Of a DNA stretch of 53,623 nucleotides, positions 92 through 33,951 are shown in pieces. The notes under the pieces are model-generated. The model saw only the letters and a program-made list of their open reading frames with translations, was not told the DNA's origin and made no database searches. Positions within the stretch are counted from its first letter, which is position 1. Every line of letters begins with the position of its first letter. The translations under genes and the position numbers were made by a program. This DNA comes from Promethearchaeota archaeon. GTDB taxonomy: Archaea; Asgardarchaeota; Lokiarchaeia; Sigyniarchaeales; SOKP01. The stretch is from the NCBI GenBank assembly GCA_004524535.1, contig SDNY01000007.1, positions 1 through 53,623 of the forward strand, in the 5' to 3' direction.

Positions 92-619
92 ATGAGTGAA
101 AAAGGTATAGTGGTAGTACAAGCGCTGGTGAAAGGCGGAGCGGCGAGCGGGGGGCCTCCTATAGGACCGGCTGTAAAGTAAATCAAGTCGAATTACTTAG
201 CCCAAGGTCCTACGGGGATTAATATCAAAGATGTTGTGGACGCTGTAAATGAACAAACTATGATGTTTAAAGGATTAACCGTTCCAGTGAGGATTGAATG
301 TGATCCTGAAACAAAGCAATTTGAAATATTTGTAGAAACTCCTTCGACAGCATCATTATTGTTGAAAGAAATCGGTGTAGAGAAAGGGGCTTCAAATCCA
401 GGGGAGGACAAGATTGGCAATTTAACTATCGACCAAATAATTTCAGTAGCTAATGCTAAAAAAGACATCTTTTTAGATAAGACATTTAAAACTTGTGTTA
501 AAACAGTAATAGGAACAGCGTTATCCGTAGGACTAACTGTTGAGGGTGTGGATCCTAGAATCATTCAAGAGAGAATAGACAAGGGAGAATATGACGATAA
601 AATAAAGGAGGAATCGTAA
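92..619 (+). CDS. rpl11: 50S ribosomal protein uL11, split by a BHB intron (exons 92..174 and 205..619; 165 aa spliced)
   Basis: ATG at 92 gives MSEKGIVVVQALVKGGAASGGPPIGPA. Removing 175..204 gives PPIGPAVGPTGINIKDVVDAVNEQT..., the conserved uL11 N-terminus, in frame with ORF 236..619. Lies upstream of uL1. Confidence 0.95.
175..204 (+). other. 30-nt BHB intron in uL11 mRNA
   Basis: Outer helix TAGGACC(162-168)/GGTCCTA(206-212); central helix GGCT(169-172)/AGCC(199-202); 3-nt bulges GT^A and CA^A; inner helix AAGTAA/TTACTT; in-frame TAA at 179-181. Confidence 0.9.
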
Positions 620-622
620 AAT

Positions 623-1354
623 ATGAAAGTGGATGATAAATTATTAAAAAGATCGTTAAATGCTGCTATTGACTTTTCGATTATAAAGAAAGAAGGATTT
701 AAAGATAAAATTCGCAAATTTGACGAAACTATTGATTTCATAATAAACTTAAAGGATATTAATTTAAGTGATCCAAAACAGAGACTTGACAAGGAATTAA
801 TATTGCCTAACGAGGTAATAACAGAAGATAAACCTAACATATGTGTGATTGCTTCTGATGAGATATTATTAGAAGCTAAAAAAATAGGATTGGATACTAT
901 TGACCCAGATGGTTTGGCAGCTTTGGATCGGGAAGAAAAGAAAGACAAAAAAAAATTCGTGAAAAAATATGATTTTTTTGTTGTGGAAGACAAGAACATG
1001 CGCGACGTTGCTCGTTTTCTGGCCAGATTTTTAGGACCTTCTGGAAAAATGCCTAAACCTTTTCCGTCGGGATATGGAATTATTTCATCAGTAGATGATC
1101 TTAATGTAGCTGTTGAGAGATATAAAAAAATTGTTAGGATCATGGTCAAAAAAAATCCAGTATTACAGGTAAAAATTGGCAAAAAATCAATGGAAATGGA
1201 TAAAATTTTGGAAAACATGAAATCTATCGTCGATTATGTCGCAGATCAAATGCCTCATAAATATAACAACTTTAGATCGATGTTTATTAAGACTACAATG
1301 GGACGACCGATCAAGATTGATAATGAATATCTAGAGACATTGGGGGTGAAATAA
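623..1354 (+). CDS. rpl1: 50S ribosomal protein uL1
   Basis: RKFDETIDFIINLK, FLGPSGKMPKP and IKTTMGRP motifs; L11-L1-L10-L12 order. Confidence 0.97.
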   Translation: MKVDDKLLKRSLNAAIDFSIIKKEGFKDKIRKFDETIDFIINLKDINLSDPKQRLDKELILPNEVITEDKPNICVIASDEILLEAKKIGLDTIDPDGLAALDREEKKDKKKFVKKYDFFVVEDKNMRDVARFLARFLGPSGKMPKPFPSGYGIISSVDDLNVAVERYKKIVRIMVKKNPVLQVKIGKKSMEMDKILENMKSIVDYVADQMPHKYNNFRSMFIKTTMGRPIKIDNEYLETLGVK

Positions 1355-1355
1355 A

Positions 1356-2255
1356 ATGATATCAAAAAAGGACATTCCAAAGTGGAAATTAGACGAAATT
1401 GAATACTTAGTAGATTTATTTAAAAAATATAAAAATATTGCGGTGATTATGGTTGGTAGTATTAACGATAAGCAAATTCAAGATACACGGAAGATTTTGA
1501 GAGGAAAAGCGGAAATTCGAATGTCTAAGAAGAGTATACAAATAAGAGCAATTGAAAAGTACAAAAAAGAGTCAAAAAAAACAAATCTTGATGATTTAGC
1601 GAAAAATATCCCAGGACAATCAAGTCTTGTTTTTACAGATATGAACCTATTTGATTTAAAAAAGATTTTCAACGAGAGTGAATGGATGGTCCCTGCTAAA
1701 CCTGATGAAATCACTCCCGTAGACATTTGGGTTCCTGCGGGAGATACAGGATTACCTACTGGACAAGTAATTTCGGAGCTAAATATGACATTACGATTAC
1801 CTACTCGTATTCAGAACGATACTATATGGATTCGCGAGAAGACGAGAACACATAAAGCTGGAGAAATTGTAGATGTTAAACAAGCGGCAGTTTTGAAAAA
1901 GCTTGGGATTAAACCGATAGAGTCATTAATTAAAATCCATTACGCATGGAGTGAGGGAGAAATAATACCAGAAGATATATTGTACATGGATATAGAATCG
2001 TTTCAACGAGATGTTGCATCATGCTACTTAGCTGCTTTAGCAATTCTTTTTGAATTACCTATTTTCCTTGAAGAAATGACAGATGAGTATATTAAAAAAG
2101 CAGTATTTGATGCAAAAATAATCAATACTATAATTTTTGAAGGTGGAATTAAAGCTTCATTGAAAAAAGAGGAGGCTAAACCCGAGGAAGAAAAACCAGA
2201 TGAGGAAGAAGAAGAAGAAGAAAGTGCTCCAGGTATCGGAGGACTATTTGGATGA
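1356..2255 (+). CDS. rpl10: 50S ribosomal protein uL10 (P0)
   Basis: IPKWK N-terminus, VPAGDTGLPTG motif, acidic tail ending GIGGLFG. Confidence 0.96.
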   Translation: MISKKDIPKWKLDEIEYLVDLFKKYKNIAVIMVGSINDKQIQDTRKILRGKAEIRMSKKSIQIRAIEKYKKESKKTNLDDLAKNIPGQSSLVFTDMNLFDLKKIFNESEWMVPAKPDEITPVDIWVPAGDTGLPTGQVISELNMTLRLPTRIQNDTIWIREKTRTHKAGEIVDVKQAAVLKKLGIKPIESLIKIHYAWSEGEIIPEDILYMDIESFQRDVASCYLAALAILFELPIFLEEMTDEYIKKAVFDAKIINTIIFEGGIKASLKKEEAKPEEEKPDEEEEEEESAPGIGGLFG

Positions 2256-2328
2256 GAATCTAAGATGAAAAATTTAAAATTAAAAAACTAGCAAAAGAAA
2301 AAAATAAAACAAAAAGAGGTAAAGAAGT

Positions 2329-2628: not shown

Positions 2629-2922
2629 TATATTATAACTAATTTTTTTTTAATATTTTTTTTTAATATTTCTTGAAATTTGATAGATCTACATTACTTA
2701 TTTTATTTTTAGGATTTATTCAATTTGGTATAAAGAATAAAATCCAGAAAAAGTATTCTGAATAATATTTTTCTCATTCATTCTATTTTCTAAAAAGATT
2801 TCAGCAATAAATTTGCCTAGATCACAAAGTTTTTTTTTAATTCACTTTTAATTTTTATAACTGGATTAATACTAAAATCGCATTTATAACCTAATCTACC
2901 CGAAATAAAGAGCTGACATAAA

Positions 2923-4392
2923 ATGGCAGGAGCATTTTTAAGATTCTTTACTCCATTCGTCAAAATAATGCCAGAAATAAGGAATCCTCAGAGGGAAGTG
3001 GCATTCAAGGAAAAATTTATCTGGACTGCCGTGGTCTTGATTATATATCTAATAATGTCAAACATTCCTTTATATGGCGTCGAACTTGAAAATTCAACAG
3101 ATTATTTTTATTGGTTAAGAGTAATACTCGCCAGCCAAAGAGGAACATTAACAGAATTAGGAATTGGCCCTATAGTAACAGCGGGACTTATTATGCAGCT
3201 ACTACTTGGATCTAAGATTATCAACGTTGATATGAACGATCCATACGATCGGGCAATGTTTAGTGGCACACAAAAAGTTATGGCTATTTTTCTGACTATG
3301 TTTAATATAATAGCATATATTATTGGAGGCCATTTTGGTAGACCAACTGATCTTGGAGTAGAAAGTATTGTGTTGATTTTTTTACAATTATTATTTGCAG
3401 GGATTATTATTATTTTGCTAGATGAATTACTTCAAAAAGGATGGGGGCTTGGTAGCGGTGTTTCTTTATTTATCGCAGCAGGCGTTGCTGGGCAAATCTT
3501 TTGGAATTCCTTTAGTTTTATCGAAGCTCCAGGGCAAGGACGTATTCCAAGAGGTATAATTATAGCATTTTTTTATGTTTTGTTTGATGACGATCCTGCG
3601 ACAAATTTAGATGATATCTGGATACGAGGGCAGTTGCCGTCTCTTTTAGGAATTATTACTACGATTATTATATTTATAATTGTTGTGTGGTTTGAGGGCA
3701 CGCGTGTGGAGATTCCGTTAGCGTATCGAGGCTATCGAGGTTTTAAAGGCAAATATCCAATGAAATTGCTCTATGTTTCTAATATTCCAGTTATTTTAGT
3801 TAACGCTTTATATGCCAATTTACTGTTTTTTGGTCAATTATTAGCAGGACCACAGTCCGGATTACGCGGTCAAGGTAATGACTTCTGGCTTGATTTACTT
3901 GGGACTTTCGAATACCAAGATACAGGGGCAGGCACAGGAGGCTATCTTATACCGAAATCAGGTTTGATATATTATCTTTCACCGCCATTGGGGATTGACG
4001 CGCTAGTGGACGATCCGTTACGGGCGGTTATTTATCTTTTCATATTCATAATCCTATGTATTTATCTCGGGAAGATTTGGGTCGAGGTATCGGGACTAGC
4101 TAGCCGTGACATCGCACAGCAAATTTTAGACTCCGGAATGATGGTGCCTGGCTTTCGCAGTTCGGCGAAAATCATAGAAAAGATACTGGATCGTTATATC
4201 CCCGTTCTTATTGTGCTTAATGGGATACTCATAGCGTGCTTGAGTTTTATGGCGGATAGTTTAGGTGCATTGACTTCAGGTACCGGGCTCCTCATCGCCA
4301 TAGGCATTATACATCAATACGCTGAGACTATATCAAAGGAGGTCGCAGCGCAACAATATCCGAGCATGCGTGGATTCCTTGGCTTAGATTAA
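2923..4392 (+). CDS. secY: Preprotein translocase SecY/Sec61alpha
   Basis: GTLTELGIGPIVTAGLIMQLL, DELLQKGWGLGSGVSLFIA and KLLYVSNIPVIL motifs. Confidence 0.98.
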   Translation: MAGAFLRFFTPFVKIMPEIRNPQREVAFKEKFIWTAVVLIIYLIMSNIPLYGVELENSTDYFYWLRVILASQRGTLTELGIGPIVTAGLIMQLLLGSKIINVDMNDPYDRAMFSGTQKVMAIFLTMFNIIAYIIGGHFGRPTDLGVESIVLIFLQLLFAGIIIILLDELLQKGWGLGSGVSLFIAAGVAGQIFWNSFSFIEAPGQGRIPRGIIIAFFYVLFDDDPATNLDDIWIRGQLPSLLGIITTIIIFIIVVWFEGTRVEIPLAYRGYRGFKGKYPMKLLYVSNIPVILVNALYANLLFFGQLLAGPQSGLRGQGNDFWLDLLGTFEYQDTGAGTGGYLIPKSGLIYYLSPPLGIDALVDDPLRAVIYLFIFIILCIYLGKIWVEVSGLASRDIAQQILDSGMMVPGFRSSAKIIEKILDRYIPVLIVLNGILIACLSFMADSLGALTSGTGLLIAIGIIHQYAETISKEVAAQQYPSMRGFLGLD

Positions 4393-6112: not shown

Positions 6113-6718
6113 ATGTCGTTATTAAGCCCTCCTGATTCAATGTTTTTTATTTTAATTCTATCTCTTATAGTTGCCCTTGTAAGTGTAGCTTTGACAAAGT
6201 TGTTGGTTGATACTGAAGAACTTCAGAGAAAACAAAAGCAAATAAAAGCACACCAAGAAGAGAAGAAAAAAATTATTGAATTAGCGGAAATCGATGTTGA
6301 GAAATATCGAAAACAGCGTAAAAGATGGGAGCGTCGGGAGGAGATGCTTAAGAAAACGCAACAGGGTATGTCAATGCAGAGATTAAAACCCACTTGTATT
6401 ACATTTTTACCTATGATAATAATATTCATCATTCTAAATAATTATTTTTATGGTCGAACAGCAGTTGCTTATACACCTATGAGCCCTGATCTTTATGGAA
6501 TGTTAAGATTTGTAACTCAAAATGCTATGGTAAATCCGGGAAGCAAAGATCCTTTAGAAAGTAGGGCATTAGTATTTACAGGTTGGTATTTCATTTGTTC
6601 ATTAGGGATTAATACATTGCTCCAAAGGCTATTTAAACTGCAAACACAAGCTTCGGGAGGGATGGAACAAATGTTTGGCGGACAGAAATCTAGTTCTATG
6701 CAATTTCCTGATGTTTAG
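6113..6718 (+). CDS. EMC3/TMCO1 (DUF106, Oxa1 superfamily) membrane insertase
   Basis: TM, coiled coil, MQRLKPTCITFLP, GWYFICS pattern; usual neighbour of secY. Confidence 0.88.
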   Translation: MSLLSPPDSMFFILILSLIVALVSVALTKLLVDTEELQRKQKQIKAHQEEKKKIIELAEIDVEKYRKQRKRWERREEMLKKTQQGMSMQRLKPTCITFLPMIIIFIILNNYFYGRTAVAYTPMSPDLYGMLRFVTQNAMVNPGSKDPLESRALVFTGWYFICSLGINTLLQRLFKLQTQASGGMEQMFGGQKSSSMQFPDV

Positions 6719-6777: not shown

Positions 6778-6913
6778 CGCAACGGGAGGGAATTTCGTTT
6801 CTTGCGAAATGGATAGAAACTTCGAACCCCCGAGTGCAGAGCACACTGGCTATTTGGATATGGAAGATACCTTCTCTCCAAGCCAGCGCGTTACCAGGCT
6901 ACGCTACCGTTGC
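6778..6913 (-). tRNA. tRNA-Ser(GGA) with two introns (37/38 at 6852..6875; T-loop 59/60 at 6792..6820)
   Basis: Acceptor GCAACGG/CCGTTGC, G discriminator, anticodon stem CTGGC/GCCAG with TT-GGA-GA loop, long variable arm; T loop TTCGAAT after splicing. Confidence 0.92.
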
Positions 6914-6954
6914 GCGTTAACAGGCGCGTTACGCGTTACCAGCGCTACCGTTGC
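6914..6954 (-). repeat. Scrambled partial duplications of the tRNA-Ser 5' end immediately upstream of the tRNA
   Basis: Minus strand reads GCAACGGTAGCG-CTGGTAACGCG-TAACGCG-CCTGTTAACGC, all pieces (one with a mismatch) of tRNA nt 1-27. Confidence 0.8.
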
Positions 6955-8539: not shown

Positions 8540-9196
8540 TTAAGTTTTTACATTTAGATTTTGCTGAAATTCTTTTAAAACAGAATACAGCCGATCTACT
8601 ATTTTTTCTCTGAATTGAGTGTCGCTAACGAGTTTAGTCTTATTTTTTGAGGCTTTTTTATAAATCTTTTTTATTTTAAGTTGAATATCTTCCAATCCGG
8701 GAAAATCAAATTTCTTAATATTTGCTTTTAATTCTTTCATAAGTTTTATTATAAGATGGCTTTGTCCTTCTAGTTTTAACGCATCCATGAGCGTTATAAA
8801 TGAAGATGTTATCTCTGAAGCAATTCCAGGCAGTTCTAAAATGTATGACTTCATTTTTTCCATAGATTGGGAAAAGATTCCATTATTGCTTCTAATAAAT
8901 TCGTTAGATGGGTTTAGATTTGAGATCTCTTTAAATATTTTAATTGCGTTCTCATATTCTTTAACGAAATTCATTTTTTCAATAAACTCTGAAATGGGAA
9001 TATTTTTCTCTCTTAAGTATGATTCAATTTTTAACAAACCATTCATAGCGTTTTTAACAGCTTTTTGGAAAAAATCGTCGTTAATTGTTCCTTCTTGGTA
9101 TTTAAAATATAAATTATTTATTGAATTGACTAAAGAAAAGATTTCAGATTCTATTTCAATGGATACTTCTTTATTTTCTTTCATTTTAAATTCCAA
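8540..9196 (-). CDS. Vps28-like (ESCRT-I) protein
   Basis: SSFITLMDALKL resembles the Vps28 C-terminal FITxMDxLKL signature; helical. True start may be the ATG at 9184. Confidence 0.7.
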   Translation of the reverse strand: MEFKMKENKEVSIEIESEIFSLVNSINNLYFKYQEGTINDDFFQKAVKNAMNGLLKIESYLREKNIPISEFIEKMNFVKEYENAIKIFKEISNLNPSNEFIRSNNGIFSQSMEKMKSYILELPGIASEITSSFITLMDALKLEGQSHLIIKLMKELKANIKKFDFPGLEDIQLKIKKIYKKASKNKTKLVSDTQFREKIVDRLYSVLKEFQQNLNVKT

Positions 9197-10190: not shown

Positions 10191-11258
10191 TTATTGATAT
10201 TCTATTAAAAAATAATGTTTTTCTTTAGTAATTTTATAATTTCGATTTATAAATTTTTTAATTAACTCTAAATTTGTTTTGGTATGATTTGTAATTTCTA
10301 AAACTTTTATTCTGGAAGGTTCATCCTTGATGTAAGCCATTAACGGTATCAATTGATCGCTTAAATAATTATCAACTGGAATCTCGTTTTTTATATATTT
10401 TATCAATTCGTCTGCTGCAATAATACCGAGTTTCTCCGAAGAAATGCGTTTTTCTCCCAAAATAGTTCCTGTTGAGATAATAGCACCAGTATCGGAGTGA
10501 GCCCATAAAGAAAGCCCTACTCCAGGACTATTTGAACTTACCCAAGTATAATTTATCTCTGTTTCCATCTTTAGGTTTCTTTTAATTTGCTGTTTTATTG
10601 ATTTTCGAATTCTTTCTGCTATGTTATCTCTTTGTCTCCTTAATTGATTGGTACAAATAATTTCACCTTCGATTAAATCAATATTTCCTAATTCTGTTAA
10701 ATTTATAGGTATTAGATTTTGTTTAAGAGGAGATATAATACATTTTACTTGAGCTCCTCCTTTGGGATAAAATCCATGTTTTTGAATTTTTATTTCAATG
10801 TTTAATCCTGAATTTTTAAAGATTTTATATGTAACTTCATTAAGGTAATTGAGGTCAGGCGCCCATTTTCCAAAAGTACCTCCTCCTGAAAGAGAGATTT
10901 CAATTGGCTTGAGTCTTTTAAGATTCAAACAAGCAATTTGAATTGGTTGCAATAGAAGACCAATACTTGCAGCAGTGGCGATATTTACATTTATTTTGGG
11001 TGATAACTGTTTATTAGGGATTAATGTTATTTCACGCGTACCAACTTTACATTCACTTAATTGACTATTAGTTAATTCAGCAAGAGTTTTAAGTCCTAAT
11101 AGATGCTGTAATTTTAAACCAGGTTTAGGACGGTTAGCACGTATATTATTAATTCTAATTGGTTGGTTAAATAGAATCGAATATCCAGCACTTAATCGAA
11201 GTATTGACCCACCCCCTTCTCCAAAAGAACCATCTATTTCCAAAAAAGTGTCGTTCAA
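10191..11258 (-). CDS. rtcA: RNA 3'-terminal phosphate cyclase
   Basis: IDGSFGEGGGSILR, IRANRPKPGLKLQH, GFYPKGG, DQLIPLMA, HTKTN motifs. Confidence 0.95.
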   Translation of the reverse strand: MNDTFLEIDGSFGEGGGSILRLSAGYSILFNQPIRINNIRANRPKPGLKLQHLLGLKTLAELTNSQLSECKVGTREITLIPNKQLSPKINVNIATAASIGLLLQPIQIACLNLKRLKPIEISLSGGGTFGKWAPDLNYLNEVTYKIFKNSGLNIEIKIQKHGFYPKGGAQVKCIISPLKQNLIPINLTELGNIDLIEGEIICTNQLRRQRDNIAERIRKSIKQQIKRNLKMETEINYTWVSSNSPGVGLSLWAHSDTGAIISTGTILGEKRISSEKLGIIAADELIKYIKNEIPVDNYLSDQLIPLMAYIKDEPSRIKVLEITNHTKTNLELIKKFINRNYKITKEKHYFLIEYQ

Positions 11259-18958: not shown

Positions 18959-19296
18959 TCAATTAATTTCAAAAAGTGATATAAAAAAATGATCGTAAGA
19001 ATGTTAACCCTACATTATTCACGCCCCAATAATAAAGAGAAATATTATCTAATAATTATGAGAAACTAATGAGTATGTCTGTCTAAATTTATTCTTTATT
19101 TTATAATTAGTACTCTGATTTCTCCCTAAGAAAATTTCAGATTCTTTTGAGAGAATTGTCATTTATCTGAAAGCACCAATAAAAAGGATTCAATCCTTAG
19201 ACAAATAATAGTATTTACCCCCTTTACTCTTTCTAAAATCATAAATTTTTTATTTCATTCAATCTAAATAATAATAACAAAAATTTTTTTTGTTAT

Positions 19297-19344
19297 AACA
19301 AACAAGAACAACAACAAGAACAAACAAGAACAACAACAAGAACA
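19297..19344 (+). repeat. Short tandem repeat (AACAAGAAC-based; 22-bp unit x2) immediately upstream of tRNA-Ile
   Basis: CAAACAAGAACAACAACAAGAA occurs twice at 19299-19342. Confidence 0.85.
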
Positions 19345-19348
19345 GTAT

Positions 19349-19519
19349 GGTCCATTAGCTCAGCTTGGTTAAAGCGCGGGTCTTATAAGACCATATAGAC
19401 GGACACCCCCTACTAAAAACTGTCTATATAGCATAAAAGCCCGAGAGCCTTGTGCCGGGATACCGGGGGTTCGAAATACCAGAGCATAAAGCTCTAGGAC
19501 GGACTTCCCCCATGGACCA
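19349..19519 (+). tRNA. tRNA-Ile(TAT) with three introns (anticodon loop 19389..19438; variable loop 19446..19461; T loop 19476..19505)
   Basis: Acceptor GGTCCAT/ATGGACC-A. After splicing: anticodon arm CGGGT-CTTATAA-GCCCG, variable loop AGACC, T arm GGGGG-TTCGAAT-CCCCC. Confidence 0.85.
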
Positions 19520-19579: not shown

Positions 19580-20260
19580 CTATTTATCAAGGCTAACAGA
19601 AACTAAATTTAACAGCCATTTCTTTATTTGCATTAAATTCTTAAGTAATCCAGGTACATGGTTTTCTGGGAATGTTTTATCTGGTTCTAATTTTTGTGTA
19701 GCGCTCATCCACTTGTTCAATGCTAATTGTACTAAACTTGCTCCTTCAGCTTCCATAAACATTGGCACAACAGCAGCAGATTCTCGGGCATCCCCGATTG
19801 CGAAATAAATTTTTCTATTGATACCTTTTATCATTACTAGATTAGCACATTCATCCAGCTTTCTTTCAACCAAAATTGATTTAAGAATTTGCTCTTTCTC
19901 GTTCTCTTCTTTTTTAGCAAAAATTTCCTTCCTAGCTTTAAGTTTGGGGGCTATTTCATTAATTAATTTATCACCAGTAGTGCCCTCATTGAAATACTTT
20001 GTAATAGATAAATTATCATCTAAAGCTTCGATTAAGATAAATTTTTTTGTATTTGAATAAAGGATTGCTTTTGAACCACCTTTATTTTCATTTTGGGATA
20101 ATTTTATGAAAATATTTCTCGTACTTACATTGTTATTCGTGTGATACCCTAATTCGAACAATTCTTTATGGTTTAAAGGAGCGAACTCTTCAGTTATATT
20201 TGTGGATAACCATTCGGATGTGATTACAGAGTTAAATTGATCTAACAATCGATTTTCCAT
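19580..20260 (-). CDS. Hypothetical protein
   Basis: 226-aa ORF with host-like codon usage; no motif recognised. Confidence 0.7.
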   Translation of the reverse strand: MENRLLDQFNSVITSEWLSTNITEEFAPLNHKELFELGYHTNNNVSTRNIFIKLSQNENKGGSKAILYSNTKKFILIEALDDNLSITKYFNEGTTGDKLINEIAPKLKARKEIFAKKEENEKEQILKSILVERKLDECANLVMIKGINRKIYFAIGDARESAAVVPMFMEAEGASLVQLALNKWMSATQKLEPDKTFPENHVPGLLKNLMQIKKWLLNLVSVSLDK

Positions 20261-20382
20261 AATTGATTAGAACCCATGTTATTTTTTAGAATTTGATTAT
20301 ACAATATACAATATTCTTATAATAAATAATTATAATTTTTATATATATTTTCATTTCGATTACAATAATATAAAATTATTTT

Positions 20383-21750
20383 TTATTTCTTAATTATTTG
20401 TTCATAAGCTTTTTCAAATCTTTCGATTGCAGTTATGATATCAGTAGATTTAGCTCCTATTGAGGCGTTCATCACAATATATGGTATGGGATAGTTATCA
20501 CAGCACATACCAAAATTTTTATCCTCTTGATTATAGACTCTAGGGCCAGTAACCCGTAAATTATAGAGAGCACCTCCTAATTCGGAAATTTGTTCTTTCT
20601 TTAGTTTTTCAAGAGATAATGCAACAGCAACTGGATTATATATTTCTAAAATTCTTTCATTTATTTTTTTCGCAATCTCTACTAATCTCTTTTCAAGTAA
20701 TTTACGATTTTTTTTTTGTTCCTCCAACAGAGTTTGATAACCAGTGAGTCCCAACGAAAGCGTGGAAATTAAAAAATTCACAATGGGAGTTGCAGATGCC
20801 CGACCAGCGTATGTATGGCTAATCTTAGTGATTAACTCATCGTGCGGAGATGCAATTATAGCTCCACCCACGGGAGTAAGGAAATTCTTATCTGTAGATT
20901 GAATGATCGCATCGACTCTTCCCGCGTCAATGGCAGTACGAATTAATTTCATCCATTCTATACTTTGAACACCATAAGCGTTAATAATGATATGCACAAG
21001 GTCATGTTCCTTCGCAAATTTGCTAATTTCTTTAATATTGTCGTGTTCTCGCGGTGGAAAAAAGCTCGTAATTGAAATAATGGCAAAACAATTTTCATCC
21101 AAATTGCTTTTAATATCCTCAATAGGAACTCGAACAGCATCTCCAAAAATCTTTCCATTAACAACCTTTACATTACAACCTATTAAATCAATTGCTTTTA
21201 ATATTGATTGATGGTCAATTCTGGGAAGTATAACTTTTCTCTTATTTATGAACTTATTATCATTCCAATCAGGTTTTAAAGCGCCTAGGCATAATGCCAA
21301 TGACATTCCAGTACAGAGAGGAACTACTATTGCCTTTTTAATATTAGGTAAGCCAAAATTTTTTAGAAAATTTCGTGCTAAAAAATTAGAGATTTCGTAC
21401 ATTATTGACCCACCCGGAGCCTTTGGTTGTGGAGCTGTTAAAAAACCAGAGCGACCAACACCATGACAAAAACCACCAGAAGTTTTTAATTGGAGTTTAG
21501 ACGCGATTCTTGCTTCTCTTTCACCCACTTTAGCAGCTCTATCATCCTTATCAGTATCCATATTTGAAAGAATCTGAAGTAAAAACTCAATTTGCTCGTC
21601 GCTCCAAGGTTCTTTTGGCACACTTTTCTGTTCAAATAGAATTTTTATTGGCTTCAAGAAATTATCTAAAACAATCTGCCCTCTATTTAACATATTTTGA
21701 GGAATAGAAGAATTTTCAAAAAATTCGCTTATTTTGTTAAAATCAACCAT
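20383..21750 (-). CDS. spcS: O-phosphoseryl-tRNA(Sec) selenium transferase (SepSecS)
   Basis: GEREAR, HGVGRSG...QPKAPG, QSTDKNFLTPVGG (PLP lysine), YAGRAS motifs; directly downstream of tRNA-Sec. Confidence 0.96.
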   Translation of the reverse strand: MVDFNKISEFFENSSIPQNMLNRGQIVLDNFLKPIKILFEQKSVPKEPWSDEQIEFLLQILSNMDTDKDDRAAKVGEREARIASKLQLKTSGGFCHGVGRSGFLTAPQPKAPGGSIMYEISNFLARNFLKNFGLPNIKKAIVVPLCTGMSLALCLGALKPDWNDNKFINKRKVILPRIDHQSILKAIDLIGCNVKVVNGKIFGDAVRVPIEDIKSNLDENCFAIISITSFFPPREHDNIKEISKFAKEHDLVHIIINAYGVQSIEWMKLIRTAIDAGRVDAIIQSTDKNFLTPVGGAIIASPHDELITKISHTYAGRASATPIVNFLISTLSLGLTGYQTLLEEQKKNRKLLEKRLVEIAKKINERILEIYNPVAVALSLEKLKKEQISELGGALYNLRVTGPRVYNQEDKNFGMCCDNYPIPYIVMNASIGAKSTDIITAIERFEKAYEQIIKK

Positions 21751-21777
21751 ATAAAATCACATTTTTTTAATTTAAGA

Positions 21778-21931
21778 TGGCGGCCCTCGAGGAGATTTCC
21801 TGTCAATTGGGTAAATCCCAATGATTATCGAACTCCTATCCCTCCGCAGGATAACTGGGTTTGAAGCCCAGCGTCAGAGACCACTTATCGTTGACCAACT
21901 AATTTTTGATCAATTCCGACCGTCAAGGGCC
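21778..21931 (-). tRNA. selC: tRNA-Sec(TCA) with two introns (D arm 21885..21914; T loop 21796..21826), CCA encoded
   Basis: 9-bp acceptor GGCCCTTGA/TCGAGGGCC, anticodon arm CTGGG-CTTCAAA-CCCAG, long variable arm, 4-bp T stem; 7-bp D stem GTCGGAG/CTCTGAC forms after splicing. Confidence 0.93.
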
Positions 21932-22036
21932 ATAAAAAATTATTTTACCTAAATCAAATTATCTATTATTTTAAATGAAATTAACTATTATTTTTTAATA
22001 TTAATTTCCTAAGAAAGATAAAAGAAAAAAACATTT

Positions 22037-22702
22037 TTATCCAAAATCTTCACATATTAGTCGTCTTGCTCCGGGAGTTATAAGTTTCAGATCGTAAACT
22101 AATTCAATGAAACTCACTATCATATGCGTAGTCGCTCCAAAGATAACATAGTTTTTTTCATTATTGGGTGCTCGATAATTATATTTTCCTACCGCAATTG
22201 TATTATTTTTAACTTTATAAGTTCTTTCTCTATAATTTTTTTTATTGGCAAAAAAGGTAATTGGAATCTTAACAATCTCTTGTACTTCCTCTTCACATTT
22301 CGTCATTTTTTGATGCTCATCAACATATCCAACAAAAGGAGTAATTATGAATTTTTTTGGCGTTATATGATCGTCAAAACATCCTAATAATTTGATTTCT
22401 TCCTTTTGAATGGCTAATTCTTCTTTTATCTCTCTTAGCGCAGTATCTTGATAAGTTTTATCAAAACGCTCGTCAAATTTACCTCCAGGAAATGCCATTT
22501 CTCCCGAATGTTTATCACCTTTTCTACTAGTACGGCGAATCAAGACTAAATCATAAGGTTTATTATTGTAAGGGATAATTAGAAAAATTACTGCGGATTT
22601 AACAAAATCTTCATCTACAAAAGAGAGCCTATTATTAGAATTAAAAGATTTTAATTTATTTTTAATAAAATCTTCATTAAAAATAAAATCGATATTGTTC
22701 AT
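22037..22702 (-). CDS. Nudix CoA pyrophosphatase (NudL/PCD1-like)
   Basis: SAV...HSGEMAFPGGK...ALREIKEE, IFGAT motifs. Confidence 0.9.
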   Translation of the reverse strand: MNNIDFIFNEDFIKNKLKSFNSNNRLSFVDEDFVKSAVIFLIIPYNNKPYDLVLIRRTSRKGDKHSGEMAFPGGKFDERFDKTYQDTALREIKEELAIQKEEIKLLGCFDDHITPKKFIITPFVGYVDEHQKMTKCEEEVQEIVKIPITFFANKKNYRERTYKVKNNTIAVGKYNYRAPNNEKNYVIFGATTHMIVSFIELVYDLKLITPGARRLICEDFG

Positions 22703-22727
22703 ATTATTTTTTTTTTTTTTCTACTTA

Positions 22728-23450
22728 TTAAAATTTACTTTTAATCTTTCTTCTGTATTTGATGTAGTCCTTTAATTGTTTGATATTTTCCAATTTAAAC
22801 CGTTTTAATCCAAGTTCTGATAGATCTATGTCATACACAAGTTCAATAAAATTTGAAATCATATACGCAGTTGCACCCCACACTGTGTATTTTTTACGAT
22901 TTTTTTTATTTTTATAATTAAAATAGAAAATTGGGAATTTTTTACCCTCAATATCAATAGCTTGCTCCCTGAAATTTCTTTTACTGATAAAAAAATCGAT
23001 GGGGATTTTTAAAATCTCCTGAACTTCTCTCTCTTCTTTAGTTAAAATTTGATCTTTATCAATAATGCCAATAAAGGGGGAAATGATGAACCTGGTCATC
23101 GTGGGAAAGTCGTCGAGACAGCCTAAGATTTTTATTTTTTCCCTAGGCACTCCAATTTCCTCTTCGGTCTCTCTCAATGCTGTATCTTTTAAATTTTTAT
23201 CATGATTAGAATCGAAACTTCCTCCTGGAAAACTCATTTCACCTGCATGTTTTGAACCCCTATTAGTCCGATGTATTAATATTAAATCATAAGGCTTTTC
23301 CTTATAGGGAATTATTGCAAATAAAACGGCTGATGATTTAAAAAATTCGTCTTTAATAGAGATTCTCTTAGGAGAGTCAAAAGGAAAAATCCTTTTCTTT
23401 ATCAAATTTTTATTAAAAATTAAGTCTAATTTGTCCATGAGTTCTAGCAA
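22728..23450 (-). CDS. Nudix CoA pyrophosphatase (tandem paralog)
   Basis: SAVL...HAGEMSFPGG...ALRETEEEIG, VWGATA motifs. Confidence 0.9.
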   Translation of the reverse strand: MLELMDKLDLIFNKNLIKKRIFPFDSPKRISIKDEFFKSSAVLFAIIPYKEKPYDLILIHRTNRGSKHAGEMSFPGGSFDSNHDKNLKDTALRETEEEIGVPREKIKILGCLDDFPTMTRFIISPFIGIIDKDQILTKEEREVQEILKIPIDFFISKRNFREQAIDIEGKKFPIFYFNYKNKKNRKKYTVWGATAYMISNFIELVYDIDLSELGLKRFKLENIKQLKDYIKYRRKIKSKF

Positions 23451-23521
23451 AAATTTTAAGATATCAGTTATTTACAAAACTTAATATTCATTTTAATAAA
23501 ATTTTTTCTCATTGAACTACT

Positions 23522-23821
23522 ATGAAACTTCCGAAGGAACTCAGAGAGAAAAGCGACCTTAGTGGAACGGCAAGTAAAGGAAAGATATGCTCCGTAAAAG
23601 AATGTGGCGAATCAGCTATACGTTCTCTTTCAGAGAATAAATGGTCAAAGGTTTGTGAAAAAGCAAACTTAATGCTTAATGAAAATAGACTACGTAAAAT
23701 TTTTTTATGTAAAAAACACTATAAAGAAGCCAATAAAATGAGAAAATCAGACGAAAAATTAATCCAAAAAAAGGGCTTTTTGGAAGATTCCACTTCTACC
23801 AAAAGGGGAAAATGGGATTAA
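23522..23821 (+). CDS. Small basic zinc-finger-like hypothetical protein
   Basis: CSVKEC...LCKKH Cys/His pattern. Confidence 0.65.
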   Translation: MKLPKELREKSDLSGTASKGKICSVKECGESAIRSLSENKWSKVCEKANLMLNENRLRKIFLCKKHYKEANKMRKSDEKLIQKKGFLEDSTSTKRGKWD

Positions 23822-23839
23822 ACCTAGAGATAACAATCA

Positions 23840-23980
23840 TTAGGAAGCGCCATATGCTTCAAAATCAGACATCTCCTCGTAAAATGGTTCTATAAGAAGG
23901 ATTTGCCCCTCAATAATCCCTACAACTAAAAATGACAAGGCTATTAGAAGTATTATAAAAGCGATCAAACTTTTTCTCAT
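23840..23980 (-). CDS. 46-aa single-TM small protein (not in ORF track)
   Basis: MRKSLIAFIILLIALSFLVVGIIEGQILLIEPFYEEMSDFEAYGAS*, preceded by AGGTGAT SD. Confidence 0.6.
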   Translation of the reverse strand: MRKSLIAFIILLIALSFLVVGIIEGQILLIEPFYEEMSDFEAYGAS

Positions 23981-24033
23981 TTCTTATCACCTTTTAAAAT
24001 AATAGAAAGCAATTAAATTTTCGTTAGAAGACC

Positions 24034-24927
24034 TTATTTTATAAGTGTCTTTAATGTTTTAATTTTATTCTCTACTTTATCTATTTGTTTTACAAACTCA
24101 CTATCTTTTTCTTTAAACTCTTTTTCTGATATTTCTTTAGAAGAAAATCTTGCCTTATTAAAATTTTTTTCTGTCGTAAGCTCACTTTTTCTGTCAATTA
24201 GATCTTCAATCCATAAATTTATTCCAGCAATCAATTCTTCCTTTTCAGAAATAAAATTTTCTAGTTGCTGTTTATACTTTTCTTTTAATTTTCTAACGAC
24301 ATCCTTATCTCTTATCTTTTTTAATTTATGCTCTCTCCATAGATTTTTAAGCTGATCTCTCTTGACTGCAATATCGGTATTTAATTTTTCTACAATAAAT
24401 TTATCTGTAGCCTTTTGTTTTAACTCGTTTTCTTTTTGTTTCAATTCTCCGATAAGTGTTTTAACTGCTTTTAATTGAACATTTATTTTTTCCCCAAACT
24501 CAAAATCGGTGTCGTATTGTGGACTTTTCACCAATTTTTGAATTTCTTTCAATTTCTCAGCCAGATTTTTCTTTTTTTCACGAATTTCGTTAAGTTCAAG
24601 ATGAATTTCTATTTGTTCTTTTACGTCCTCTGAAAGAGGGTTTACTTCTTTTTTTTTTTGTTTTTTATCTTTTAATTTCTTTTCTACTTCTTCCAATTCT
24701 TCTCCCAATTCCATTTCTTCTTCTAGTTCCGTTTCTACTTCTTTTTCTTTTTTATCTTTCTTTTTTTTCTTTTTATCAAGATTTTTTTCTTTAGACTTTT
24801 CAGGAACCGCCTTTTCGGTTTTTTTTTCGGTTTTTGGTAAATTAGCAAGTAATGGTTTCCCACAGGAGATACAGAATTTGTCATTCGGGGCGACTGGTTT
24901 ACCACAATATACGCAATATTTAGGCAT
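24034..24927 (-). CDS. Zinc-ribbon plus long coiled-coil protein
   Basis: CVYCG..CISCG ribbon, charged linker, heptads. Confidence 0.75.
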   Translation of the reverse strand: MPKYCVYCGKPVAPNDKFCISCGKPLLANLPKTEKKTEKAVPEKSKEKNLDKKKKKKDKKEKEVETELEEEMELGEELEEVEKKLKDKKQKKKEVNPLSEDVKEQIEIHLELNEIREKKKNLAEKLKEIQKLVKSPQYDTDFEFGEKINVQLKAVKTLIGELKQKENELKQKATDKFIVEKLNTDIAVKRDQLKNLWREHKLKKIRDKDVVRKLKEKYKQQLENFISEKEELIAGINLWIEDLIDRKSELTTEKNFNKARFSSKEISEKEFKEKDSEFVKQIDKVENKIKTLKTLIK

Positions 24928-25029
24928 GATTTAGGTTTTTTTACATATTATTATAATATATTTTAAATGAAATTTATAATTAAAAAAGTTATATTAGTCC
25001 AGTTGTTAAAATTTTTTTAGTTTTAAAAA

Positions 25030-26445
25030 ATGGAAATTGAGAAAAAAATTCCAATTCATCTTGGATTATTTGGCCATATTGATTGTGGTAAAACGGCTAT
25101 TGCTGCGGTTTTAAGCGAATTTATATCAACTGCAGGTATTGATGCACATCCACAAAGCAAAGAAAGAGGCATTACTATTGATTTGGGATTTACGAGCTTT
25201 ATACTCGATAATTATCTGGTAACTTTAGTAGATGGTCCTGGACATGCTGATTTGATTAAAATAAGCGCTTCTTCTATAGAGATAATAGATTGTGCGTTAT
25301 TAGTTATTGATATAAATAAAGGTCCTCAAGTTCAAACTGGAGAACATTTAATCATGATTGAGGCGCTTAATATAAAAAAGATAATCGTAATTCTCAACAA
25401 AATAGATTTATTTAAGAGGCCCCTTGATGAAGAAATTAAGAAAATCAAAAAATTTTTTGAATCCACCTCTTTTGGAGCAAATATACCGATTTACACCGTT
25501 TCTGCTAAGAATAAAGAAGGATTTGAAAAATTAAAAAATGGTATTTTAAAAACAATTGAAACTTTAGATATTAAAAGAGATCTTGAGGGGGATTTAGTAA
25601 TTCCTATTGATCACCATTTTTCAATCAAAGGAATGGGGGCAGTTATCACAGGGACTATATTAAAAGGAAAATTAACTTTGAATCAATTTTTAGAATTGTT
25701 ACCTGTAAATACTTCAGGAAGAGTTAAAAATATTCAAGTTTTTCATCAGAATGTTGAATCTGCTAAAGCAGGTGATCGAGTTGGTATCAATGTAAAAAAT
25801 ATCGATATCAACAAGGTTTATCGGGGGTGTTATGCTACAAATAATAAAAATGCGTTTGAATATTGCGATATTATAGAAGTAAAAGTCAATAATAATAATT
25901 TATTTAAACCTGAAACCCGTTTTGGTACTCAAGTCCATGTTACAATAGGAATGGTAACTGTTGTAGGAAATATTTATCCTTATTACGAACTGGAGGGTAA
26001 AAGAGTTAAAACTACAGCATCAAGCAATAATAAAGGATTTAAAGCTATTTTATGGTTAAAGGAAAGAGTTTTAATTAGAAAAGAAAAAGCAATTATGCTT
26101 ATTAGTCGATTAGATTTACCGCCGACCACTCTTAGAATAATAGGTTCAGCAGAAATAATAAAGATTCATACTGAACCTCCTTTATTTTACAAATACAAAA
26201 TAAAAAAAGGGCGAATCCAAAATCCTAATCATCCTCAAGGAATAGTATGTGAAGGTTTAGCCAAGAGCGTTGTCGGAGCAAAAAAAATTATTGGGAAAAA
26301 ATTGGAGGCCCCATTCACAAAGATTTTAAGCACTTTTGGAACCAAAGGAGCAGTAATTGTCGGAATTGAAAGCAAAGAGATAATATTAAAAAAAAGTGAG
26401 CCAGTTTTAAAAGAGTTAAGAAGTTTTCATTTAAAAAAGATTTAA
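25030..26445 (+). CDS. selB: Selenocysteine-specific elongation factor SelB/EFSec
   Basis: GHIDCGKT, SKERGITIDLGF, DGPGHADL, QTGEHL, NKID, IDHHFSIKGMG, SRLDLPPTTLRI motifs; near SepSecS and tRNA-Sec. Confidence 0.95.
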   Translation: MEIEKKIPIHLGLFGHIDCGKTAIAAVLSEFISTAGIDAHPQSKERGITIDLGFTSFILDNYLVTLVDGPGHADLIKISASSIEIIDCALLVIDINKGPQVQTGEHLIMIEALNIKKIIVILNKIDLFKRPLDEEIKKIKKFFESTSFGANIPIYTVSAKNKEGFEKLKNGILKTIETLDIKRDLEGDLVIPIDHHFSIKGMGAVITGTILKGKLTLNQFLELLPVNTSGRVKNIQVFHQNVESAKAGDRVGINVKNIDINKVYRGCYATNNKNAFEYCDIIEVKVNNNNLFKPETRFGTQVHVTIGMVTVVGNIYPYYELEGKRVKTTASSNNKGFKAILWLKERVLIRKEKAIMLISRLDLPPTTLRIIGSAEIIKIHTEPPLFYKYKIKKGRIQNPNHPQGIVCEGLAKSVVGAKKIIGKKLEAPFTKILSTFGTKGAVIVGIESKEIILKKSEPVLKELRSFHLKKI

Positions 26446-26485: not shown

Positions 26486-26908
26486 ATGGCAAATATTGGA
26501 GAATCGGAATTTGAAATTAAACAAGAGACATTAGATGTACTGATGCGTTCATTAGAAACACTGGAGAGCAGTACTGATTTAGAAGGAACTGCAATTGTCT
26601 CTAAGACAGGATTAAGGGTTGCAAGTTCTGAGACAGCAGATGTAGTAGCGGATATTTATTCTGCTTCGCCAGCAACGTTAATTTCCCTTGCAGAAAAAAT
26701 AAGTGAAGGATTAAATCAAGGGGAATTAAAAGAAATCTTAATTAGAGGTAGTAGTGGATACACTATTATTTTAGTAGGCGATAAAGATACCGATTTTATG
26801 CTGTTTACCAACTGTAAGAAAGCCTTTAAGCTTGGGTATTACATTCATAAACTCAAAAAGTCTTTTGAGCTAATGGGGCCAATCCTAAAGCAAATTGCTC
26901 AAAAATAG
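26486..26908 (+). CDS. Roadblock/LC7 domain protein
   Basis: DLEGTAIVSKTGLRVAS...L..GELKEILIRGSSGYTIIL pattern. Confidence 0.85.
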   Translation: MANIGESEFEIKQETLDVLMRSLETLESSTDLEGTAIVSKTGLRVASSETADVVADIYSASPATLISLAEKISEGLNQGELKEILIRGSSGYTIILVGDKDTDFMLFTNCKKAFKLGYYIHKLKKSFELMGPILKQIAQK

Positions 26909-31924: not shown

Positions 31925-31925
31925 T

Positions 31926-32381: not shown

Positions 32382-32411
32382 TTTGTCATCACTCTATTTT
32401 TAATAAATTTT

Positions 32412-32912
32412 TTATTCGTCTAAATCGAGATCTTCCTCATCAAGGAAATCTTCATCTTCTAATTCTTCTTCATCAAGAAAGTCTTCATCTTCGAGCATAG
32501 CTTCAAATTCATCCATTTCCTTTTGAGAAATGCCAAGATTAAGAATCAGAAAATTTCTTTTCTGAGCGTAATCTATTAAATCTAATCGTTTTTTTGACCC
32601 TAACCTACCAGAAATCTTTATAGCATGTTTATTAGGCCTTAAATTTAACGTCTCTATATCGTATTTATTATTTATTCTAACTTCTTGGTATCCAGATGGA
32701 TGTAAACCTCGTATTTTTTTAGGACTTCTATATCCAACTGAAGGAGATTTTACGCCTGATTTGGTCTTTTTTCGTGTTTGTGAATCTATACCTCTTGCTT
32801 TTCTCCACGAATCCTTAACTCTATCATATCGCCATGATTCAACTCGTCTAAATGAGGGGCGTTTTTTCTTCATCCGTTTTCGAATCTCCAATAATCTCTC
32901 TTCTTCTGACAT
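32412..32912 (-). CDS. rpl32e: 50S ribosomal protein eL32 with acidic C-terminal tail
   Basis: WRKARGIDS, GYRSPKKIRGLHPSG motifs. Confidence 0.96.
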   Translation of the reverse strand: MSEEERLLEIRKRMKKKRPSFRRVESWRYDRVKDSWRKARGIDSQTRKKTKSGVKSPSVGYRSPKKIRGLHPSGYQEVRINNKYDIETLNLRPNKHAIKISGRLGSKKRLDLIDYAQKRNFLILNLGISQKEMDEFEAMLEDEDFLDEEELEDEDFLDEEDLDLDE

Positions 32913-32933
32913 ATTTATTCCCTTTATTATAAT

Positions 32934-33515
32934 TTACTTAATTTGCCATATTATTTCATTTCCAATTTGCTTCTTATACAAATAAACCCCGTCCTGAAAT
33001 ACTCTTGGATCTTTTTTACGAATTTTGCAACATCTTTTTAAATTAGCTGCCGTTTGGCCTAGAGATTCTCGGTCAGGCCCCTCAAGGATGATATCATCCT
33101 CTTCGACTTTTATTTTTACATTTTTTTCTATTTTTGCTTTTCTTGGTGCTCTTTCTCCTAAAAAATTTTCTACAAATAATATTTGAGCTCTTTCATCAGC
33201 CCGAACAGTAAACGGGAAATGAGAGTAACAAACTTTTGATACATACTTATACGGAGTCTGCACACCAACAATTAAATTGTGAATAATATTCATGATTGTT
33301 TTTGCCAAGGCAACAGTTTTGTTTTTTGGAAAATGTGAACTGAATATGATTTTATTTTTTTCAATTGATATCTTTATACCTCTAGCATGCGAAAAATCTT
33401 TAGAAATTGGTCCTCCATTAGGTCCTTTTACTATAATTAAATTATCCCCTTTAATTTCAACATCTACTCCCTCAGGAATCTCCAGTGTTTCACTAAAATA
33501 GGCAATTTTTACCAT
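32934..33515 (-). CDS. rpl6: 50S ribosomal protein uL6
   Basis: YSHFP, ENFLGERAPR, KDPRVFQDGVY motifs. Confidence 0.97.
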   Translation of the reverse strand: MVKIAYFSETLEIPEGVDVEIKGDNLIIVKGPNGGPISKDFSHARGIKISIEKNKIIFSSHFPKNKTVALAKTIMNIIHNLIVGVQTPYKYVSKVCYSHFPFTVRADERAQILFVENFLGERAPRKAKIEKNVKIKVEEDDIILEGPDRESLGQTAANLKRCCKIRKKDPRVFQDGVYLYKKQIGNEIIWQIK

Positions 33516-33538
33516 TTTTCCTTAACACAATAATTTAT

Positions 33539-33951
33539 TTAATATATATAACATAAAGAATGTCCACCAATACTTTTTTCTTCAGCTTCTTTTAAACTAA
33601 TTATTCCTTGATTTGTGGTCAAAATAATTAAACCTAAACCAGGAGCAGGAAGTAATTTTCTCTCCAATGCTTCTAATTGGTTAACTGTATAATTTAAGCG
33701 CATCAAGGCCTTACATTCATTGATTTTACCTAACAATGCTATTTTGAATTTACCTTGTCTGCCATCATCATATCTCTCGAACTCGCCAATATACCTTGAA
33801 TAAATCAGAATTTATTGATGTAGGCGTGGCGTTGGAATATTCTTAAGATGTGCTGGTTTAATTTCGAGGCAGGGGTGATAATTACTTCTTTCTTCTTCGC
33901 ATACTCTCCCATCTTGAGCGTGTTACACATATCTGCAAGTGTGTTTGTCAT
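33539..33951 (-). CDS. rps8: 30S ribosomal protein uS8, split by a BHB intron (exon 1 33951..33820, exon 2 33790..33539; 127 aa spliced)
   Basis: Exon 1 MTNTLADMCNTLKMGEYAKKKEVIITPASKLNQHILRIFQRHAY joined to exon 2 IGEFERYDDGRQGKFKIALLGKINEC...LLPAPGLGLIILTTNQG...GGHSLCYIY gives a complete archaeal uS8; position upstream of uL6. Confidence 0.95.
33791..33819 (-). other. 29-nt BHB intron in uS8 mRNA
   Basis: Minus strand CGCCA-C-GCCT-AC^A-TCAATAAA-TTCTGA-TTTATTCA-AGGT-AT^A-T-TGGCG: central helix GCCT/AGGT, two 3-nt bulges, inner AATAAA/TTTATT, outer CGCCA/TGGCG; contains TGA and shifts the frame. Confidence 0.9.

Follow-up and report, generated by a model that had tools for sequence, protein, structure and literature searches.

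Inserts in two ribosomal-protein genes and three tRNA genes

The stretch analyzed here, called the window throughout, comprises all 53,623 nucleotides (nt) of contig SDNY01000007.1 of a Promethearchaeota archaeon (assembly GCA_004524535.1). In total, nine short inserts were located in this window, interrupting the genes for the ribosomal proteins L11 (uL11) and S8 (uS8) once each and three tRNA genes seven times (2 + 3 + 2). A first-pass annotation had proposed nine inserts of the bulge-helix-bulge (BHB) type in just these tRNA and ribosomal-protein genes, and we reproduced their existence, their order and their lengths of 30, 29, 24, 50, 16, 30, 31, 30 and 29 nt, six of the nine being 29-31 nt long. 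In the features below, H is the 4-bp helix between the two bulges, h and h' are the outer and inner helices, and ^ marks the cut.

92-174, forward strand: L11 exon 1, codons 1-27 and the first 2 nt of codon 28; ATG at 92, and a translation that fits the N-terminus of the relatives P0001 and P0002 of 165 amino acids (aa)
175-204, forward strand: candidate L11 mRNA BHB intron, 30 nt, with an in-frame TAA at 179-181
205-619, forward strand: L11 exon 2 including the stop codon; Pfam Ribosomal_L11, 2.6e-19
6778-6913, reverse strand: tRNA-Ser(GGA) gene, 136-nt precursor; ARAGORN tRNA-Ser(gga) with a long variable arm once both inserts are removed
6792-6820, reverse strand: tRNA-Ser candidate intron, 29 nt, T-loop 59/60; strict hBHBh' score 34, H TTCG/CGAA, h 5 bp, h' 5 bp
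6852-6875, reverse strand: tRNA-Ser candidate intron, 24 nt, anticodon-loop 37/38; H TTGG/CCAA, 4/4 pairs
19349-19519, forward strand: tRNA-Ile(UAU) gene, 171-nt precursor; ARAGORN tRNA-Ile(tat) once three inserts are removed
19389-19438, forward strand: tRNA-Ile candidate intron, 50 nt, anticodon loop (37/38 to 38/39); H TTAT/ATAA, 4/4 pairs
19446-19461, forward strand: tRNA-Ile candidate intron, 16 nt, variable-loop 45/46; H CCCG/CGGG, 4/4 pairs, bulges AG^A and AT^A, h 1 bp, h' 2 bp
19476-19505, forward strand: tRNA-Ile candidate intron, 30 nt, T-loop 59/60; H TTCG/CGGA, 4/4 pairs, h of 5 bp being the T-stem
21781-21931, reverse strand: tRNA-Sec(UCA) gene, 151-nt precursor; ARAGORN tRNA-SeC(tca) once both inserts are removed, with CCA encoded at 21778-21780
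21796-21826, reverse strand: tRNA-Sec candidate intron, 31 nt, T-loop; H TTCG/AGGA, 3/4 pairs, h 5 bp
21885-21914, reverse strand: tRNA-Sec candidate intron, 30 nt, D-arm; HBh' type with H GTCG/CGAT, 4/4 pairs, bulge GA^A, h' 8 bp, h 2 bp
33539-33790, reverse strand: S8 exon 2 including the stop codon; profile positions 93-126 on a separate open reading frame (ORF) by Pfam, in a different frame from exon 1'
33791-33819, reverse strand: candidate S8 mRNA intron, BHB-like, 29 nt, frameshifting; H GCCT/AGGT, 4/4 pairs, bulges AC^A and AT^A
33820-33951, reverse strand: S8 exon 1', a divergent replacement copy of 44 codons; matched by Pfam Ribosomal_S8 at profile positions 2-45

The L11 insert forms a perfect hBHBh' motif, with an outer helix of 7 bp, H GGCT/AGCC, bulges GT^A and CA^A and an inner helix of 6 bp. 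This is exactly the minimum free energy (MFE) fold (z = -4.23, none of 200 shuffles being as stable). In the largest L11 ORF of the window, Pfam recognizes the C-terminal L11 domain only. The reading frame resumes in the same frame after the insert, and the spliced product has 165 aa, the length of uninterrupted relatives, with the junction GPAVGPTG as found in the uninterrupted 165-aa proteins P0001, P0002, P0005 and P0017. The two closest full-length L11 proteins (96% identity) come without the intron. Three clusters at 94-95% identity, P0006 and P0007 (127 aa) and P0015 (119 aa), are N-terminally truncated like the window's own P0009, and in five 138-aa clusters (82-85% identity) residue 1 coincides with the first one encoded by the window's exon 2. 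In other Asgard L11 calls, conservation is lost 3-10 residues earlier, before GPAV in those of 142 and 146 aa and before ASGGPP in those of 156 aa. The N-terminally truncated Asgard calls comprise P0011, P0013, P0014, P0021, P0024, P0033, P0043, P0045 and P0069. Together, these calls suggest that further L11 genes may carry introns at the same and at nearby sites.

A search of genome contigs with L6 as query returned eight loci, from metagenome-assembled genomes labelled Promethearchaeota, Promethearchaeia, Odinarchaeota or archaeon. S8 is uninterrupted in seven of these eight related loci, including L001, which shares 93-95% DNA identity (~94%) with the window across syntenic blocks. The spliced S8 of the window has 127 aa, nearly all of the best 120 S8 relatives listed having 126-128 aa, and its junction AYIGEFE is identical to that of the seven uninterrupted loci. 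In the S8 insert, a single mismatch adjoins each bulge; h has 5 bp and h' 1+7 bp. At the remaining locus, L005, a separate insert of 32 nt lies in S8 9 nt downstream of the window's site; it forms a BHB whose H is GGCG/CGCC and whose inner helix has 6 bp, and its fold scores z = -4.05. The first-pass annotation had also held that unspliced mRNAs would terminate early, and this was borne out for both genes: L11 meets its TAA at 179-181, and S8 read unspliced from 33951 on the reverse strand stops after 48 codons at a TGA four codons past the junction. A 93-aa S8 protein, P0122, was considered as evidence of a further intron and rejected, as an alternative start or an incomplete gene seems to account for it.

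The tRNA genes escape standard detection in the unedited window, where ARAGORN and Rfam at gathering score returned no tRNA. With its intron option, ARAGORN gave no gene at the default score and 90 noise calls at a lowered score, and a permissive Rfam scan gave a lone weak tRNA-Sec match (21811-21899, reverse strand, 24 bits, E = 2.1). Intergenic gaps hold three tRNA-like genes, each 53-96 nt over length. When the seven inserts were removed in silico, and T flanks and CCA had been added to the edited genes by script, ARAGORN called three of three tRNAs with full cloverleaves. Around the 37/38 insert of tRNA-Ser, the anticodon stem serves as the outer helix, with AT^A as the 3' bulge and a loose inner hairpin. 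For the 50-nt insert of tRNA-Ile, the flanking helices are off the strict register (a relaxed form), and the MFE fold contains a 10-bp internal hairpin. The edited tRNA-Sec shows a UCA anticodon, a 9/4 acceptor/T fold, a 7-bp D-stem and a long variable arm in the ARAGORN drawing. Its gene lies in a selenocysteine cluster (19580-26445) made up of an Asgard Sec-system protein (19580-20260), SepSecS (20383-21750), tRNA-Sec and SelB (25030-26445). The archaeal SelB and SepSecS flank tRNA-Sec, and two NUDIX genes lie in between.

Two side observations concern the upstream flanks of these tRNA genes. Directly upstream of tRNA-Ser (6914-6954, reverse strand) lies a degenerate copy of the first ~27 nt of the tRNA, in which a 12-nt 5' stretch is exact, followed by TAACGCG-type repeats; the copy may have been left behind by an integration or gene-conversion event at the 5' end of the tRNA. 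Imperfect short repeats of the ACAAGAACAA type are found immediately upstream of tRNA-Ile (~19296-19345, forward strand).

Probable splicing at BHB motifs and competing explanations

The nine inserts were compared under a common register rule, in which the cut falls after the second base of each 3-nt bulge and the 4-bp helix H lies between the bulges. The rule was taken from the canonical 37/38 case and is upheld by the perfect L11 example. It had been claimed that the 3' end of every insert supplies the partner strand for a 4-nt exon segment; this stood for eight of the nine inserts, with four of four pairs, and fell short in the tRNA-Sec T-loop insert, with three of four. At random positions, four of four H pairs occur with a background frequency of 0.025, giving a binomial P of 1.4e-12 for at least eight of nine inserts, and P is at most 8e-8 once the choice among 1-4 equivalent junction registers (yielding the same product) is allowed for. 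Moving the 3' site by 1-6 nt abolishes the H helix in nearly all inserts. In a strict hBHBh' scan, only L11 (score 42) and the 59/60 insert of tRNA-Ser (34) exceeded the maxima of 30-33 seen in six shuffles. A permissive BHB scan across the window gave ~1,000 matches and was uninformative, and a tightened scan gave 71 matches against 44-60 in shuffles, with only two real introns standing out.

Based on these results, the nine inserts are most probably archaeal BHB introns that are cut by the splicing endonuclease and whose exons are rejoined by an RNA ligase. Splicing by EndA and RtcB is likely for the mRNAs and, for the tRNAs, close to certain. In the proposed mechanism, a run of four exon bases shortly before the 5' site would pair with four bases near the 3' end of the intron, placing both sites in short bulges; EndA would cut both bulges, and a ligase of the RtcB type would join the exons. 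Splicing would yield functional tRNA-Ser, tRNA-Ile and tRNA-Sec from the tRNA precursors, and in the mRNAs it would remove a stop codon (L11) or a frameshift (S8) and so restore the full conserved proteins. Relaxed motifs are reported to be cut by an (alpha-beta)2 endonuclease with a broad-specificity L1 loop, a type ascribed to Asgard archaea in the accessible portions of PMC5829648 and of a preprint (bioRxiv 10.64898/2026.10.13.758758).

Several points weigh against this explanation. Seven of the nine motifs are relaxed (HBh', hBH, or with a mismatch beside a bulge), and the splice registers were picked with the BHB rule in mind. The tRNA-Sec T-loop insert, with its incomplete H helix, is the weakest motif of the nine; the local MFE fold of the 16-nt tRNA-Ile insert is not a BHB (z = +0.38, 122 of 200 shuffles being as stable); and the S8 fold beats its shuffles modestly (z = -1.86, 12 of 200 as stable). 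A Pfam scan of the window found neither endA nor rtcB on the contig, and RtcA only. When the protein database was searched for S8 exon-1-sized fragments (26-84 aa) by shared 5-mers, a search of limited power, the one candidate was the window's own protein. Moreover, we infer cleavage, ligation and mRNA splicing from the observed sequence anatomy, the restoration of products and the distribution in relatives. Being chimeric and located in a rearranged region, S8 for its part could be a broken gene or an assembly chimera.

It is unlikely that the mRNA inserts stay unspliced and that L11 and S8 are broken, mis-assembled or strain-mixed, with functional copies elsewhere or with a chimeric bin. Such damage would fit the state of the S8 region, in which, relative to L001, 70 nt are duplicated, two segments of ~2 kb are inserted and the native 5' fragment is displaced, and whose exon-1 form was met in no other record, and it would fit the start of the contig just 91 nt upstream of L11. 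However, both mRNA inserts lie in exact BHB register, once they are removed length and junction agree exactly with those of the relatives, and a perfect hBHBh' is not expected from random damage. The exon-1 ORFs of both genes are intact and conserved, the truncated L11 pattern is repeated in three independent close clusters, and S8 of L005 has a BHB insert of its own. In addition, the genes for L11 and S8 are normally single-copy and essential, which counts against their being broken. That the inserts remain in the RNA and are passed over during translation, by bypassing or recoding, as is reportedly the case in gene 60 of phage T4, is extremely improbable. In S8, the insert is preceded by a tyrosine codon (TAC) and has TAT as its last three bases, so that a take-off/landing pair yielding the same protein is conceivable, but the take-off codon is not directly followed by a stop, and L11 has no matching take-off and landing codons. 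Furthermore, the BHB register is satisfied in both mRNAs, and the seven inserts of like build lie in tRNAs, where bypassing makes no sense.

The proposal of the first-pass annotation that the mRNA introns act as a maintained checkpoint, tying ribosome synthesis to tRNA-splicing activity, was not sustained and seems very unlikely. Both interrupted genes are ribosomal and their unspliced transcripts would stop early, as such a device would have it, but conservation is expected of a conserved regulator, and the S8 intron is missing from seven of eight related loci, including the ~94%-identical L001, as is the L11 intron from the two closest full-length proteins. With neither mRNA intron present in very close relatives, the checkpoint finds no support. 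The S8 intron, moreover, appears to have arrived with a foreign insertion, and a comparison of the window with L001 over ~20 kb of shared sequence revealed no other intron-like indel, none of at least 8 nt being found inside ribosomal genes. The sporadic presence fits better with recent neutral or selfish gain than with regulation, and the distribution is best explained if both mRNA introns are recent, recurrent but sporadic insertions and not a conserved regulatory device.

Rearrangement of the S8 locus and the 585-aa ORF

Relative to L001, the ribosomal-protein operon is rearranged in the window. Homology with L001 ends at 35880, 40 nt upstream of an ORF of 585 aa, and returns at 33793, at most 3 nt from the 3' end of the S8 intron. 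The intervening 2.1-kb insertion (33794-35879), absent from L001, holds the 585-aa ORF, a spacer, the divergent S8 exon 1 and the intron. By manual count, exon 1' is ~73% identical to the N-terminus of S8 in L001, while exon 2 lies in a DNA block of 94% identity. Two features mark the region.

34083-35840, reverse strand: 585-aa ORF, just upstream of S8 exon 1' and between S14 and S8; predicted GIY-YIG domain (~residues 165-300), then repeated helical modules resembling helix-turn-helix motifs
38450-38687, reverse strand: displaced native S8 5' part and upstream region, 91% identical to L001 9474-9711

The 585-aa ORF itself matched no Pfam and no NCBIfam family, and its own family is rare (48 matches among 1.8 billion representatives). 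The consensus of a 29-sequence family contains the GIY-YIG motifs G..Y.I, G.TT, RW..Y, RE..WI and G.N, and one of 14 members scanned, P0257, matches Pfam GIY-YIG at 4e-6. In a profile search of the PDB, the catalytic domain of I-TevI was the sole match, a weak one (E = 0.13). An AlphaFold2 model of the ORF reached a predicted local distance difference test score (pLDDT) of 89; Foldseek matched it to I-TevI (1mk0) with probability 1.00 and a template modeling (TM) score of 0.68 by target, at a whole-protein E of 0.25, none of the matches reaching 0.001. All eight structure rows obtained from the ESM Atlas belonged to GIY-YIG clusters, mostly of phage SegE or NUMOD type. Several results thus point to a predicted GIY-YIG (I-TevI/SegE-like) nuclease domain in the 585-aa ORF, with weak support from sequence comparison by itself. 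At locus L006, a 72-aa C-terminal remnant of the ORF (738-953) is found upstream of an uninterrupted S8, and presence or absence of the ORF at the S8 locus was seen in two instances only (the absence from L001 and the remnant in L006). A search of the window for other copies or remnants of the family gave none at E < 0.1, with 13 chance-level matches, and none near the other eight introns.

The displaced native S8 part reads residues 1 to ~38 and then a stop, with an N-terminus that fits P0123. It is located 4.6 kb upstream and is fused at ~38449 to a 70-nt duplicate that spans the end of S17 and the beginning of L14 (copies at 40760-40829 and 38379-38448). The fragment looks like the product of a tandem duplication or of complex repair. 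A second insertion of ~2.1 kb (38688-40759, reverse strand), also absent from L001, separates S17 from L14 and encodes a leucine-rich-repeat (LRR) protein (38977-39912) and an ORF of 97 aa (40488-40781) that begins with the first seven codons of L14 and then diverges.

The arrangement at S8 hints, without proving it, that the intron was brought in by a homing nuclease. It has the look of a free-standing homing endonuclease gene whose co-converted flanks end at an insert in the probable target. As a tentative possibility, and a rather doubtful one, the S8 intron may be both passenger and self-protection of a mobile cassette, whose predicted free-standing GIY-YIG nuclease would cut intron-less S8 at the conserved stretch coding for AYIGEFE. 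Repair would then copy the nuclease gene, the donor S8 5' exon and the 29-nt BHB insert, which would destroy the target site, and the tRNA-splicing enzymes of the host would render the insert harmless. We keep this possibility below the explanation by BHB splicing as such because it concerns a single instance, simple homing does not account for the displaced native fragment at 38450-38687, and nothing alike lies near the other eight introns. If true, it would provide a DNA-level route for BHB mini-introns, which are too short to encode anything, into protein-coding and perhaps tRNA genes. For the tRNA introns of Asgard archaea, the route of entry is stated as open in the searched part of a preprint (bioRxiv 10.64898/2026.10.13.758758).

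Relation to known systems and genomic context

For more than 20 years, BHB introns in archaeal coding sequences have been known essentially from cbf5. Watanabe is said to have described the BHB intron in the cbf5 pre-mRNA of Crenarchaeota in 2002. In the available sections of the papers, cbf5 introns measure 16-44 bp in Crenarchaeota (Yokobori 2009, PMC2738675), and a 2020 Haloferax study names cbf5 as the only mRNA BHB intron reported besides its own case in a 5' untranslated region (UTR) (PMC7714728). The candidates in L11 and S8 resemble cbf5 and the 5'-UTR intron of Haloferax HVO_1309, as the same sections describe them, in being short, putatively protein-spliced introns of protein-coding transcripts with BHB or relaxed BHB boundaries, in their length (29-30 nt), in their expected tie to a hetero-oligomeric EndA of broad specificity and in their gain and loss among relatives. 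They differ in their occurrence in an Asgard archaeon, in the genes affected (L11 and S8) and in their number, two on a 54-kb contig; moreover, splicing of cbf5 and HVO_1309 is described there as shown experimentally, whereas the L11 and S8 introns are known here from sequence alone.

HAC1 and XBP1 undergo protein-only mRNA splicing at stem-loops, with a change of frame, by IRE1 together with tRNA ligase or RtcB and under regulation by stress. They serve here as an analogy only, since the nuclease is IRE1 and not EndA, the motif is different and the process is stress-regulated. With respect to the S8 locus, a comparable arrangement is reportedly that of T4 mobA and the gene 60 bypass cassette. 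Collaborative homing, in which a free-standing endonuclease gene lies beside an intron that interrupts its target, is documented for F-CphI/psbA and mobE/I-TevIII in the excerpted text of PMC6083498 and PMC2790892. The S8 locus shares with the cases excerpted there a GIY-YIG gene beside an interrupted conserved gene and the joint absence of nuclease gene, exon and insert from a close relative, with homology returning at the end of the insert. It differs from them in that they concern self-splicing group I introns or ribosomal bypass in phages, whereas the S8 locus combines a 29-nt BHB mini-intron on a cellular archaeal chromosome with a predicted nuclease.

The tRNA introns have closer published counterparts. 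In the searched text of PMC11291895 and bioRxiv 10.64898/2026.10.13.758758, tRNA genes of Asgard archaea and Thermoproteales carry several introns per gene at non-canonical sites, missed by standard finders, and mRNA introns go unmentioned. The tRNAs of the window resemble these multi-intron tRNAs in the sites used (D-arm, 45/46 and 59/60), with seven introns in three genes against 2.2 per gene in the richest families given in that text. A Lokiarchaeal tRNA-Sec with a 31-nt T-loop intron is described in the available part of Mariotti 2016 (PMC4989117). The tRNA-Sec of the window likewise adjoins the Sec machinery and has a 31-nt T-loop intron, but unlike the gene as described there it carries a second intron of 30 nt in the D-arm. 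Literature searches, with subscription-only papers and preprint supplements outside their scope, turned up no description of BHB introns in coding genes of Asgard archaea, ribosomal-protein genes included; cbf5 and the one 5'-UTR case were the only mRNA examples met. Introns of this kind are already known, and indeed routine, in the tRNAs of Asgard archaea but very rare in protein-coding genes, and the candidate mRNA introns in L11 and S8 are new to these searches, a cbf5-type phenomenon in a new phylum and in new genes.

Two ribosomal-protein genes on one Asgard contig hence appear dependent on the tRNA-splicing pathway. The truncated L11 calls in many Asgard clusters hint that such introns may be common and mis-annotated as short or broken genes, in which case marker genes used for phylogeny and for estimates of completeness would be mis-called. 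The finding bears on the extent of mRNA splicing in the closest prokaryotic relatives of eukaryotes and, if the link to the nuclease holds, on how such introns move.

The window has a G+C content of ~31%, and Promethearchaeota is placed by taxonomy as a phylum in the Asgard kingdom Promethearchaeati. Besides LRR proteins and a protein annotated as "Asgard selenocysteine system protein", Pfam and NCBIfam identified several proteins of eukaryote-signature type, listed here with RtcA.

6113-6718: EMC3/TMCO1-like, eukaryote-signature type (Pfam/NCBIfam)
8540-9196: VPS28-like, eukaryote-signature type (Pfam/NCBIfam)
10191-11258, reverse strand: RtcA, RNA 3'-terminal phosphate cyclase (Pfam RTC, 4.6e-59)
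26486-26908: Roadblock/LC7, eukaryote-signature type (Pfam/NCBIfam)
51119-51634: OST3/OST6-like, eukaryote-signature type (Pfam/NCBIfam)

RtcA is part of the RNA-end healing and ligation pathway, which partners with RtcB. The VPS28-, Roadblock-, EMC3- and OST3-like proteins, together with the Sec-system protein and the labels of the eight related loci, support an Asgard origin of the contig.

Two further candidate introns in ribosomal-protein genes were rejected. An in-frame intron hidden in L24, considered for its stretched Pfam alignment, was dismissed, as L24 is colinear in the six loci holding the gene. The other, an 18-nt mini-intron at the start of L22 (ATG 43033, TAA 43024), is made needless by an ATT start, which explains the reading. 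At locus L008, only residues 114-213 of S3 were matched (3338-3637), ~100 nt from L22, the N-terminal half of S3 being missing or interrupted. The L22 gene of the window (42539-43018, reverse strand) has its apparent ATT start at 43016-43018, as in L001, where relatives have ATG (ATG-CCT-ACN-TGG); the ATG at 43033 upstream meets the TAA after three codons, and gene callers arrive at a truncated L22 of 117 aa.

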